DNA of 38,727 bases from a virus: UHGV virus genome UHGV-2005300, one strand, 5' to 3'. Made by a program: the position numbers and the translations under genes. The notes beneath the pieces were generated by a model, which made no database searches, was not told the DNA's origin, and worked only from the letters and a program-made list of their open reading frames with translations. Position 1 is the stretch's first letter. Every line of letters begins with the position of its first letter. Below are positions 3,681 to 10,492 of the stretch, piece by piece.

Positions 3681-3898
3681 TCGTCATCCTCATCCGAGTC
3701 ATCCTCATCACAGGATGAGAGTAGTGGGTTAGTCATTCGCCCTACTTGAGTGGCGTAGCCACGCCGACAGAGATTGCGCAGCACACTGTATATTTCGAAC
3801 ATCTCGGTTCGTTCATCGCCAACATCAAGCTCAGATGCTATAGCGTGGCATTCAGTCGCGAGAGCCGATATTTTCTGAAATAACTCTGCTTTATTCAC
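3677..3898 (-). CDS. Hypothetical acidic small protein (73 aa, GTG start)
   Basis: Trimmed from ORF 3677-4075; proposed GTG start overlaps the stop of the upstream gene with GGAG 7 nt upstream; acidic C-terminal tail. Confidence 0.4.
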   Translation of the reverse strand: MNKAELFQKISALATECHAIASELDVGDERTEMFEIYSVLRNLCRRGYATQVGRMTNPLLSSCDEDDSDEDDE

Positions 3899-6257: not shown

Positions 6258-6506
6258 CTACTCTATTTCTTCTTCGAATGATTTTATTAGTCGGTCAATA
6301 ACATCATCCGTTTCAATATCATTTCCGTCTGATTGCTTTAATACATCTATTGATTCTGCAGCGGTAAATTCCATCGCTGTGAGAAACTCGACAATTGTAC
6401 ACTCAACGACATATCGTTCTTCATCTGTACGACATGAGATAAAAGAGCATTTAATTGCTGTTATTACTTTTTGTTTAAGCTCTGCAGGGTAATCAGTTTT
6501 TATCAT
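6258..6506 (-). CDS. Hypothetical acidic protein (82 aa)
   Basis: Intact ORF with GGAG ribosome-binding site; first gene after the terminator at 6519-6548. Confidence 0.6.
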   Translation of the reverse strand: MIKTDYPAELKQKVITAIKCSFISCRTDEERYVVECTIVEFLTAMEFTAAESIDVLKQSDGNDIETDDVIDRLIKSFEEEIE

Positions 6507-6670: not shown

Positions 6671-7568
<898 letters not shown>

Positions 7569-7836
7569 CTGGATTCTCCTGTCAGTTAGCTTTGGTGGTG
7601 TGGTGGCTGGTAGTCTAGCTCCAGCTTGTTGAGTCTCATTCGGAGGGGTATAACCGGCACCCCAGCGATTTTTCCATGCGACAACGTGCGCGTTATGGCG
7701 GCCTTATCGCCCGCGGCTCCCCATCTCGTCCACGCTATTGCTAGCGTTGGGAGCGCTTCACCGCTCAACAGTAGGTAAGCACTTGCCAGTGACTAGCTGG
7801 CTTCACCACACCCCAAAGCCTTCTGCTTTGAATGCT

Positions 7837-7867
7837 GCCCTTCTTCAGGGCTTAATTTTTAAGAGCC
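7837..7867 (-). promoter_or_regulatory. nutL (boxA GGCTCTTAA, boxB GCCCTGAAGAAGGGC)
   Basis: Read on the minus strand; boxB identical to lambda nutL; lies between the candidate pL and N. Confidence 0.8.
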
Positions 7868-7906
7868 TCACCTTCATGGTGGTCAGTGCGTCCTGCTGAT
7901 GGCTAA

Positions 7907-7935
7907 ATAGTACGATTTGTACTTTATCGAGTCAA
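7907..7935 (-). promoter_or_regulatory. Candidate pL (-35 TTGACT, -10 TACTAT) with overlapping dyad AGTACgatttGTACT
   Basis: 17-bp spacer; located between the cI terminator and nutL; dyad at 7909-7923. Confidence 0.45.
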
Positions 7936-7999
7936 TACAAAATGTTCTAAATATAATTAGTTTTTTATAACGCTTTGTATTTAATGGGTTTATATTTTG

Positions 8000-8030
8000 G
8001 AAAAAGAAAACCCGACGCTAAGGTCGGGTT
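8000..8030 (-). terminator. Intrinsic terminator downstream of the repressor gene
   Basis: Minus-strand hairpin AACCCGAC-cuuagc-GUCGGGUU followed by UUUUCUUUUU. Confidence 0.55.
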
Positions 8031-8060
8031 ATTGTTGTGTGTTTTAGAGTTGTGAGGCTG

Positions 8061-8714
8061 TTAACTAAATGTCTCTTCAGGCCACTGGCTGGCGATAACT
8101 TTCCCTACTACGGAACAGCTATCATTGCATGGAATCATTGGATATTGCGGGTTTAGTGGCTGTAGGAACACCTGACCGCTATCCCTGATCAGTTTCTTGA
8201 AGGTAAACTCGTCACCACCAAGTCTGGCTATGCAGAAATCACCTGGCTCAACAGCCTGCTCAGGGTCAACGAGAATTAACATCCCGTCAGGAAAGCTTGG
8301 CTTGGATCCTGTTGGCGCGGTCATGGAATTACCTTCAACTTCAAGCCAGAACGCACAATCACTGGCTTTTTTGGTTGTGCTGACCCATCTCTCCGCATCA
8401 CCTTTGGTAAAGGTTCTAAGCTCAGGCGAGAACATCCCGGCCTGAACATGAGAAAAAACAGGGTACTCATATTGTTTTTTAACGGGGGCAGATGAGTATT
8501 CGCCAACAGGTGAAAATGTACCGTCGTGGTTGAATGAGACGTTATCAATACCAAGGTATTTAAACACCACACCAATCTCGTCAAGAGATGGATGACGAGA
8601 TCCGCGCAACCAGTGACCAATTCCACCCTGCGTCATACCAAGCTCTTCAGCTAACTTCTCTTGAGTTATGCCGAGCTCTTTCATTCTGGATCTAGCCAGT
8701 TCATACCATTTCAT
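8061..8714 (-). CDS. cI: CI/C2-type prophage repressor (HTH plus S24 autopeptidase domain)
   Basis: C-terminal [13 protein letters not shown]...FKKL...LNPQYPMI matches P22 C2 / LexA-like domain; N-terminal [23 protein letters not shown]; start chosen for RBS spacing, alternatives at 8720 and 8762. Confidence 0.85.
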
Positions 8715-8775
8715 TTTCATACCCTTATTATTACGCTCTGTACTAAAACCATCCATGCACAAGATGTATTTTTTG

Positions 8776-8805
8776 TTTGCATTCTAAAAGTACATATCGT
8801 ATTAT
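8776..8805 (+). promoter_or_regulatory. Candidate pR (-35 TTTGCA, -10 TATTAT)
   Basis: About 27 nt upstream of the cro ATG; 18-bp spacer; operators not confidently resolved. Confidence 0.4.
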
Positions 8806-8831
8806 TGTTTCATGGTTACTATGGAGGGCAT

Positions 8832-9047
8832 ATGAGCAACCTACGAAAATATCGAGAGTCACTGAATATCTCTCAAACAACACTTGCTAAGGCAGTTGGA
8901 TGCACACAGGGAGCTATCGGACATTGGGAATCTGGTCGTCGCTTCCCAGACCTTAAAACATGCCGTGCTCTTGTTGAGTGCCTAAACAAGTTGGGCGCAA
9001 AAGTCAGTCTTGATGACGTGTTCCCGCCGGAACACAAAGCCGCTTAA
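8832..9047 (+). CDS. cro: Cro-type HTH repressor (71 aa)
   Basis: GGAGGG ribosome-binding site; HTH LNISQTTLAKAVGCTQGAIGHWESG; divergent from cI; ORF-track ORF trimmed to the RBS-supported ATG. Confidence 0.8.
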   Translation: MSNLRKYRESLNISQTTLAKAVGCTQGAIGHWESGRRFPDLKTCRALVECLNKLGAKVSLDDVFPPEHKAA

Positions 9048-9055
9048 GACATTCC

Positions 9056-9087
9056 CGCTCTTACACATCCCAGCCCTGAAAAAGGGC
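9056..9087 (+). promoter_or_regulatory. nutR (boxA CGCTCTTAC, boxB GCCCTGAAAAAGGGC)
   Basis: Exact lambda-type boxA and boxB just after the cro stop. Confidence 0.8.
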
Positions 9088-9150
9088 ATCAAATTAAACC
9101 ACACCTATGGTGTATGCATTTATTTGCATACATTCAATCAATTGTTATCT
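9088..9150 (+). terminator. tR1-like region (Rho-dependent in lambda)
   Basis: Sequence ATCAAATTAAACCACACCTATGGTGTATGCATTTATTTGCATACATTC matches lambda tR1 from memory. Confidence 0.35.
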
Positions 9151-9166
9151 AAGGAAATACTTACAT

Positions 9167-9460
9167 ATGGTTCGTGCAAACAAACGCAACGAGGCTCTAC
9201 GAATCGAGAGTGCGTTGCTTAACAAAATCGCAATGCTTGGAACTGAGAAGACAGCGGAAGCTGTGGGAGTTGATAAGTCGCAGATCAGCAGGTGGAAGAG
9301 GGACTGGATTCCAAAGTTCTCAATGCTGCTTGCTGTTCTTGAATGGGGCGTCGTTGACGACGACATGGCTCGATTGGCACGACAAGTTGCTTCGATTCTC
9401 ACCAATAAAAAACGCCCGGCGGCAACCGAGCGTTCTGATCAAATCCAGATGGAGTTCTGA
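9167..9460 (+). CDS. cII: Transcriptional activator CII
   Basis: 97 aa [47 protein letters not shown]... essentially lambda CII from memory. Confidence 0.9.
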
Positions 9461-9492
9461 GGTCATTACTGGATCTATCAACAGGAGTAATT

Positions 9493-9637
9493 ATGACAAA
9501 ACAACTCAGTCCTTACCAGGACAAAATTCACAAACACATACTACGTGATCGCTTCCTGTCCAGCTTCAAGCAGCCTGGTCGATTCCGGGCTGAGTTGGAA
9601 AAAGTGAAGCTGATGCAGAAGGAGAAAGGTCATGAGT
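9493..9637 (+). CDS. Hypothetical small protein (48 aa) between cII and O
   Basis: AGGAG ribosome-binding site 5 nt upstream; stop overlaps the O start; under the ORF-track cutoff. Confidence 0.4.
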
Positions 9638-10492
9638 AATCTTGCAACCGTAACACATTTAAGGCCTTCACAACGGCCTGTGGAGCGTCGTGTGGCAGAA
9701 GTTGAAGATGGTTATACCCGTCTTGCAAATGCCCTGTATGAAGAGCTTATCGGCGCAGATTTAACGAAAAATCAGAGCAAGGTTGCCCACGCCATATGCC
9801 GTAAAACATACGGCTACGGTAAAAAGATGGATCGCATCTCTGATAGTCAGTTAGCTCAAATTACCAGGCTGCCAAGACAGAAGGTAAACAAGGCCAAGAA
9901 TGAGCTTATCGCGATGAAGGTAATCCTTCGCGAAGGCCAGCAAATCGGGCCTAACAAGAACATCGAGGAATGGCAAATCGAAGGGTGTCACTACTCTGGT
10001 GATAATGTCACTGCATTGGTGACAAAAAGTGTCACCAAAACGGTGACAGCGCTGTCACCAAAACAGGGACACACAAAAGAAACTATTACAAAAGAAAAAA
10101 GAAATAATAAAAACACTATGTCCGAAAGTGTTCGGACGGAGTGTGAAAAATCATCTGACCGTCACGAAGAAACCGACAAGGCATTCGAGGAAATATTCTG
10201 GTGTGCAGGCATGCGGAAAGCCGGGAAGAAAAACGCAGCTTCAGCATTCAGAACACAGTTCAGGGAATGGCGTAAAACTACCAAGGGTACGGCAAGCGAG
10301 TTTGCCACGATGCTGGCAGAAGACATCGCATGCAGGAATGGTAAGCAGTTCGGATTCGACAGGTTGTTACCATCGAGCTACCTGAACGGTCAGCGCTGGA
10401 ACGACGAGAAGCCAGAAACTATTCAACCACAATCCAAACCATCATCCGCAATCACCGTATCGAAAACTGGCTACGTGTTTTTCGACAGGTGA
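9632..10492 (+). CDS. O: Replication initiator O (lambda-O-like N-terminal domain, different C-terminal domain)
   Basis: N-terminal segments [13 protein letters not shown] and [20 protein letters not shown]...[16 protein letters not shown] parallel lambda O; iterons inside the gene. Confidence 0.85.
9980..10115. repeat. Replication origin: GTGACA/TGTCAC iterons followed by an AT-rich tract
   Basis: Repeated TGGTGACA / TGTCACCA units at about 9984-10066, then an A-rich stretch to about 10115, inside O as in lambda ori. Confidence 0.6.

Follow-up and report, generated by a model that had tools for sequence, protein, structure and literature searches.

The virus genome UHGV-2005300 (38,727 nucleotides; this whole stretch is called the window below) carries a lambdoid early-control region at 7245-9500, in which N, nutL, the leftward promoter and operators (pL/OL), a terminator, cI, the rightward operators (OR), cro, nutR, and cII follow one another in this order. 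The immunity locus at its centre is very probably a lambda-style bistable switch of VT2-Sakai (cI2c/cro4) specificity, placed between lambda-type N/nutL and nutR/cII modules. The cI2c and cro4 types were named by Smith et al. 2012 (PMC3430580). The operators, which the initial annotation of 7837-9150 had left unresolved, are resolved here as six predicted 17-bp dyads with the consensus TA(G/A)TAC-N5-GTA(C/T)TA. The same six sites were already contained in the annotation of the Shiga toxin 1 (Stx1)-converting phage AP005153 and in Table S5 of PMC4587872.

As is characteristic of lambdoid CI/Cro switches, a repressor with helix-turn-helix (HTH) and S24 domains is found divergent to a small HTH Cro, with dyad operators over pR/pRM and a further set at pL. 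The VT2-Sakai type is indicated by matching recognition residues in cI and Cro and by operator half-sites at all six positions, with one half-site change (position 3 of OL3). Neither operators of the TATCACCGCCAGTGGTA family nor the N-terminal domain of lambda cI or the Cro of lambda, which mark the lambda immunity type, were found, and no lambda operator sequence was detected in the whole window at up to three mismatches.

The immunity region is an ordinary one that is already catalogued, and the locus holds no element of a new kind. An identical sequence exists in GenBank: Escherichia phage vB_EcoP-720R6 (ON470605), a P22-like Lederbergvirus, matches 7560-9170 at 100% identity, and the virion genes of the phage with this ON470605-identical immunity region are P22-like. 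In addition, the operator set has been annotated and published for homologous Stx phages. The cI-cro segment is 92.9% identical at the nucleotide level to AP005153, Stx2-converting phage II (AP005154), Nil2, 2851, and the PA4-type phages, which are equated with the Sakai Stx2a prophage in PMC4587872. Residues 1-46 of cI, the HTH included, are identical to those of AP005153 cI, and Cro differs from the Cro of that phage by a single substitution, E49A, outside the HTH, so the same specificity can be expected. Of 5,426 complete E. coli genomes, 786 contain the immunity-specific segment 8472-9053, among them CFT073, Nissle 1917, E2348/69, and O157:H7 strains.

Operator Sites and Their Half-Sites

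A symmetrised matrix was built from the published Sakai sites only and scored over the 38.7-kb window and 200 shuffled windows. The predicted operators, given without strand, are listed with their matrix score, their rank in the window, and the AP005153 "putative operator" feature with which each coincides once the features of this phage are transferred to the window:

7908-7924, OL1, TAGTACGATTTGTACTT: 21.8 bits, rank 1; AP005153 41228-41244
7933-7949, OL2, CAATACAAAATGTTCTA: 17.5 bits, rank 3; AP005153 41253-41269
7966-7982, OL3, TATAACGCTTTGTATTT: 15.6 bits, rank 4; AP005153 41286-41302
8729-8745, OR3, TATTACGCTCTGTACTA: 15.6 bits, rank 5; AP005153 43457-43473
8755-8771, OR2, ATGCACAAGATGTATTT: 9.8 bits, rank 8, the weakest match; AP005153 43483-43499
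8788-8804, OR1, AAGTACATATCGTATTA: 19.6 bits, rank 2; AP005153 43515-43531

OL1 is the only perfectly symmetric operator, and the reverse complement of OR1 differs from it at 2 of 17 positions. The half-sites take the form A(G/A/T)TAC, in which only AC at positions 5-6 and the mirror-image GT at positions 12-13 are invariant in all 12. The initial annotation had pointed to GTAC-centred elements as possible half-sites. These are indeed present (AGTACGATTTGTACT at 7909-7923, GTACT at 8740-8744, and AGTAC at 8789-8793), and the first is the OL1 core; the second and third are half-sites, the right-hand one of OR3 and the left-hand one of OR1. The remaining operators escaped notice because their half-sites are degenerate; AATAC, ATTAC, ATAAC, AGAAC, and TGCAC are found among them.

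According to Table S5 of PMC4587872, where all six Sakai operators are listed, the credit for them belongs to Fattah et al. 2000; the OL and OR labels in this table are swapped relative to the GenBank record AP005153. The differences between the sites in the window and the Sakai sites fall mostly in the central 5-bp spacer, and the others are at position 3 of OL3 (T for C) and at position 17 of OR1 and OR3. When OL and OR were compared as possible copies of each other, direct and inverted alignments scored 4 and -3, respectively, against -15 +/- 5 for shuffles; the spacing favours the direct orientation, and the similarity of OL1 to the reverse complement of OR1 favours the inverted one.

Support for the Operator Assignment

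The five best matrix hits of the whole window are five of the six operators (15.6-21.8 bits), with OR2 in eighth place. In the shuffled windows, the mean best score was 12.6 bits (n = 200), and a shuffled window contained on average 1.7 positions scoring at least 10.5 bits. Given this background, the matches at 3779-3795 and 6405-6421 (approximately 10 bits) were considered to be chance.

Motif discovery across the two promoter regions, which the initial annotation had suggested as a check, led to five of the six sites. All 5-mer dyads with gaps of 2-9 were enumerated in both regions (211 bp) with up to two mismatches allowed. AATAC-N5-GTATT ranked first, with 6 hits against 0.11 expected from the rest of the window, which is an enrichment of approximately 50-fold. 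The hits comprise five operators and the segment 7950-7964, and OR2 was missed with three mismatches. The AT-rich match at 7950-7964 was not taken as an operator but as a probable chance site because it falls in the part between OL2 and OL3 that varies most.

The comparison with homologous prophages gave further support. Relatives of the cI N-terminal domain are encoded at 160 loci that were gathered from IMG/VR and species-representative genomes; together with phage records, these loci yielded 31 distinct OR and 35 distinct OL haplotypes. The variable alignment columns were distributed as follows:

Half-sites: OR 0/30, OL 4/30
Spacers: OR 7/15, OL 8/15
Inter-operator sequence: OR 28/70, OL 30/50

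Half-site columns were thus variable in 4 of 60 cases and spacer columns in 15 of 30 (Fisher p = 6e-6 for half-sites against spacers alone, and 2e-9 against all other columns). The pattern extends to more distant relatives: in prophages of Proteus, Providencia, and Moellerella, whose cI N-terminal domain is approximately 50% identical, three AC-N5-GT dyads are kept, each as far from the cI start as in the E. coli group. These dyads (GTATAC-N5-GTAT) are spaced 34 and 27 bp apart, and the recognition helix is SKGAVGHW. This sister immunity group offers a natural pair for studies on the co-variation of recognition helix and half-site.

Repressor and Cro Proteins

The two regulators are encoded by the following genes:

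8061-8720, minus strand: cI repressor, with the start at ATG 8720 or 8714; Pfam HTH_3 and Peptidase_S24; PHROG transcriptional repressor family
8832-9047, plus strand: cro, 71 aa, all-alpha HTH_3 type; Pfam HTH_3 (E = 1.4e-12); PHROG transcriptional repressor family

The PHROG matches of cI and Cro are PHROG 4 and PHROG 3, both of which are transcriptional repressor families. To judge from the alignments, cI is a chimera of a Sakai-type N-terminal HTH domain and a lambda C-terminal S24 domain. The initial annotation had assigned the repressor and cro to another specificity than lambda's. This holds for cro and for the DNA-binding domain of cI, but the C-terminal 135 or so residues of cI are those of lambda with three differences, so the repressor is not wholly non-lambda. 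Its Ala94-Gly95, Ser132, and Lys175 align with lambda A111-G112, S149, and K192. The C-terminal domain of lambda-type cI carries oligomerisation and RecA-dependent self-cleavage. The N-terminus is 13 aa shorter than that of lambda cI and highly divergent from it (residues 10-54 correspond to lambda 23-67 in a PDB alignment), and the all-alpha HTH_3 Cro is unrelated in sequence to lambda Cro; neither of the two could be aligned with its lambda counterpart outside the generic HTH. The near-lambda C-terminus of this repressor class was noted in PMC3430580, and PMC10742460 mentions it with a citation of Fattah 2000.

In AP005153, cI is given a longer start, which corresponds to window position 8756 and lies inside OR2. 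This start was rejected in favour of ATG 8720 or 8714 because both ATGs and their distance to OR3 are kept in the distant relatives from Proteus, Providencia, and Moellerella.

Cro resembles the N-terminal domain of cI (35% identity, E = 5e-13), and the recognition helices of the two, TQGGIGHW in cI and TQGAIGHW in Cro, are nearly the same, which fits two proteins that would read one operator set. The half-site frame TAxxAC is shared with lambda, where the half-site is TATCAC; here, it is TAGTAC or TAATAC, so that T1, A2, A5, and C6 are common and positions 3-4 differ. In lambda cI, Gln44 reads A2 of the half-site. The equivalent of Gln44 is kept in the cI of this phage and that of Ser45 is replaced by Gly, a combination that may go together with a half-site that shares T1, A2, A5, and C6 but not positions 3-4. 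At the lambda positive-control positions Glu34 and Asp38, the residues are Glu and Glu.

Promoters and the Proposed Switch

The transcription signals around the operators are as follows:

7900-7935, minus strand: pL, with -35 TTGACT (7930-7935), 17-nt spacer, and -10 TACTAT (7907-7912), from a promoter scan
8777-8805, plus strand: pR, with -35 TTGCAT, 17-nt spacer, and -10 TATTAT, from the promoter scan; "putative major rightward promoter" in AP005153
8728-8756, minus strand: putative pRM, with a weak -35 ATGGAT (8751-8756) and -10 TAATAA (8728-8733), from the sequence, the geometry of the relatives, and a similar AP005153 feature
7999-8030, minus strand: intrinsic terminator after cI (8009-8030 plus a T-run), with an 8-bp stem followed by TTCTTTTT, from a terminator scan

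The +1 of pL, at 7900, was assigned from homology with the start of lambda pL. For pR, the scan itself places the promoter one base leftward, as TTTGCA-18-TATTAT (8776-8805). A consensus scan of 7560-9180 returned only pL, pR, and one promoter-like site inside cro. OL1 overlaps the -10 and spacer of pL, and OL2 adjoins its -35. The GTAC elements on the right do not flank pR, as had been proposed; OR1 overlaps the spacer and -10 of pR, and OR3 overlaps the -10 of the putative pRM. The centre of OR2 is approximately 43 bp upstream of the putative pRM start, and the end of OR2 is 6 bp upstream of the pR -35. The +1 of pRM would coincide with the first cI ATG (8720) or adjoin it, which would make the cI mRNA leaderless, as in lambda.

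In lambda, tripartite 17-bp operators, divergent cI and cro, overlaps with pL, pR, and pRM, and an OR2 approximately 42-43 bp upstream of pRM are found as well. By analogy, repressor dimers would bind the six dyads. With OL1 and OL2 covering pL and OR1 covering the spacer and -10 of pR, both early promoters would be shut off. OR2 is at the position from which lambda cI activates pRM, and OR3, over the pRM -10, could mediate negative autoregulation. Cro, with nearly the recognition helix of cI, would use the same sites, and the lambda-derived C-terminal domain would supply dimerisation, cooperativity, and RecA-stimulated self-cleavage. Binding, the order of occupancy, cooperativity, activation of pRM, and the leaderless cI mRNA are what we infer in this scheme.

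That a domain-swapped repressor can work as a lambda-like switch is demonstrated by the case of BAA2326 (O104:H4). Its repressor is also a chimera with the lambda C-terminal domain, and its three OR sites were footprinted and the cooperativity between OR1 and OR2 was measured (PMC5977221). However, the N-terminal domain is different, the set of operators, which are weakly symmetric (ATAACTGTGCGTAATG and others), is a different one, and the specificity is not that of the switch described here.

Operator Spacing and Alternative Readings

The centre-to-centre distances are 25 bp for OL1-OL2, 33 bp for OL2-OL3, 26 bp for OR3-OR2, and 33 bp for OR2-OR1. VT2-Sakai (Sp5), AP005153, AP005154, Nil2, and 2851 likewise have six 17-bp operators in the same order, spaced 25/33 bp at OL and 26/32-33 bp at OR. 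The OR3-OR2 distance is 26 bp in all 87 of 87 related loci, whereas OR2-OR1 is 33 bp in 73 of them, 34 bp in 9, 35 bp in 2, and 32 bp in 3. This variation arises from the length of a T-run between OR2 and the pR -35 (window 8770-8774), which might modulate cooperativity or the strength of pR. On the plus strand, both clusters run short-then-long (25/33 and 26/33 bp), unlike the mirror-image layout of lambda, and consequently the two operators nearest the promoter are 25 bp apart at pL, against 33 bp at pR.

Several points weigh against a simple transfer of the lambda switch to this locus. Spacings of 25-26 and 33 bp stand against 20-24 bp in lambda, and OR2 does not overlap the pR -35, so lambda-like pairwise cooperativity cannot simply be assumed. 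At 9.8 bits, OR2 is outscored by two other places in the window (10.5 and 10.2 bits), and shuffled sequences reach such a score as well. The operator features in databases and the published operator tables are themselves predictions, and the searchable literature yielded neither footprints nor gel shifts for the repressor and Cro of this immunity type. The footprints from the Koudelka laboratory concern 933W and BAA2326, which have other specificities, and in PMC10742460, lambda cI alone was tested on Sakai sites, with micromolar binding. PMC10742460 cites Fattah et al. 2000 for a partial cross-immunity with lambda.

It is conceivable, though rather unlikely, that the C-terminal domain, which in lambda mediates cooperativity at a spacing of 20-24 bp, acts here across a different, family-conserved operator geometry, with OR1 and OR2 approximately three helical turns apart. 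If this is true, the lambda C-terminal domain tolerates or uses a pairing scheme that is not that of lambda.

A still less probable reading is that only the good dyads (OL1, OR1, OR3, and perhaps OL2) are bound and that OR2 and OL3 are fortuitous AT-rich look-alikes, which would leave a bipartite switch as at OL of 933W. The low score of OR2 and its three mismatches to the best dyad speak for it, and 933W, at least as it is cited in PMC4587872, has only OL1 and OL2. Nevertheless, the half-site columns of OR2 vary in 0 of 10 cases among the 31 haplotypes while its spacer columns vary in 4 of 5; a dyad is found at the OR2 position in relatives of only 50% identity; and OR2 is at a lambda-like activating distance from the putative pRM start. 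OL3, with 15.6 bits, exceeds the mean best score of the 200 shuffled windows. That the GTAC elements reflect chance similarity of AT-rich promoter regions, or shared promoter sequence, and are not repressor sites is hardly credible: the regions are AT-rich and the same scan picked up the otherwise unsupported look-alike at 7950-7964, but the dyad is enriched some 50-fold over the rest of the window, its half-sites are fixed while the spacers vary freely, a pattern that promoter hexamers alone would not give, and work on homologous phages had arrived at the same sites independently.

Mosaic Structure with Lambda

A blastn comparison with lambda (NC_001416) delimits the foreign part of the region. 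The following segments are lambda-like:

7245-7615: N, 96%
7807-7901: nutL and pL leader, 98.9%, ending exactly at the base that matches the lambda pL start
8003-8038: terminator that lies after rexB in lambda
8067-8471: cI C-terminal domain, 93.8% at the nucleotide level, 3 aa differences
9054-9500: 98.4%

Only 7902-8002 (OL) and 8472-9053 (cI N-terminal domain, OR, and cro) are immunity-specific and non-lambda. The description of the whole cassette as non-lambda is thus right for OL, the cI N-terminal domain, OR, and cro, but not for the pL leader, the terminator, and the cI C-terminal domain. The terminator is 89% identical to lambda 35799-35834, downstream of rexB; rexA and rexB themselves are absent here. 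In contrast to the Stx phages (AP005153 and others), there are no genes between cI and OL. These phages also have an HK97-like N and an HK022-like cII, whereas the phage described here combines a lambda-type N, nut, and cII with P22-like virion genes. It shares N, cII, and pRE with lambda, along with the nut sites and the terminator behind the cI operon.

The flanking modules contain the following features:

7245-7568, minus strand: N antiterminator, lambda type, 107 aa; Pfam N36 (E = 1.5e-26); 96% nucleotide identity to lambda N
7616-7806, minus strand: non-lambda insert in the nutL-N leader, with no lambda match; the flanking arms GGGGUGUGGUG and CACCACACCACC still pair
7837-7867, minus strand: nutL, with boxB GCCCTGAAGAAGGGC (7837-7851) and boxA GGCTCTTA (7860-7867), from the lambda comparison
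9056-9087, plus strand: nutR, with boxA CGCTCTTA (9056-9063) and boxB GCCCTGAAAAAGGGC (9073-9087), from the lambda comparison
9167-9460, plus strand: cII, lambda type; Pfam Phage_CII (E = 5e-48); 98.4% identity to lambda

The nut sites had been called identical to those of lambda. They are present at the expected places and are lambda-like, but one base differs in each of them. Both boxB elements and the boxA of nutR are identical to lambda, the boxA of nutL (GGCTCTTA against lambda CGCTCTTA) has a single mismatch, G for C at the first base, and the spacer between boxA and boxB of nutR has a single T>C change at 9069. Lambda-type nut sites consist of boxA CGCTCTTA and, after it, the boxB hairpin GCCCTGAARAAGGGC; this arrangement is found behind both pL and pR, with the one boxA mismatch at nutL, and the cognate N is encoded nearby. 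The nut sites and N form a matched lambda pair because the N protein carries the arginine-rich boxB-binding peptide of lambda. At the 5' end of cII, the cII-binding repeat of pRE, TTGC-N6-TTGC, is found on the opposite strand.

In the N leader, a GC-rich segment of approximately 190 nt (7616-7806, minus strand) stands in for the apical part of the lambda N-leader hairpin. In lambda, this apical part holds an RNase III site. The insert recurs at 100% identity in 19 phage records, among them Sf6, Sf101, HK544, HK446, HK633, mEp213, and mEp043, and its predicted fold has -114 kcal/mol (z = -4.4). No Rfam family was matched by the insert in a permissive-threshold Rfam scan of 7200-9500. Louie, Dewey, and 683R2, which are phages of the same immunity, align in two pieces that cover 86-88% of 7560-9170, and they may lack the insert.

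Neighbouring Features

To the left of N, a 167-aa open reading frame (6749-7252, plus strand) shares 8 nt with the 3' end of N. It stands where lambda has sieB, and its PHROG match (PHROG 1244, E = 5e-53) is to a family of unknown function. The permissive Rfam scan of 7200-9500 gave a single hit, which stayed below threshold: 9407-9468 (minus strand) resembles the prophage sRNA AgvB (22 bits, with a gathering score of 56; E = 0.28). The hit coincides with the 3' end of cII, the place of the antisense OOP RNA in lambda. Right of cII, the phage has a non-lambda replication module (9493-10492). It contains a 48-aa open reading frame that matches PHROG 1913, whose label "tail protein" is probably a misnomer, followed by a 286-aa O-like protein and then by a primase/helicase, according to the annotation of ON470605.

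Significance

The analysis fixes the coordinates of operators, promoters, and mosaic junctions for a very common immunity type of E. coli prophages; beyond annotation, its importance is small. The operator map is nevertheless relevant to work on the induction of toxin phages because the same repressor specificity controls the Sakai-type Stx2a and Stx1 prophages. On the rather unlikely reading of a different operator geometry, the spacing polymorphism between OR2 and OR1 could, if it alters the cooperativity of these two sites, tune prophage stability and the induction threshold between strains, and this would include Stx phages.

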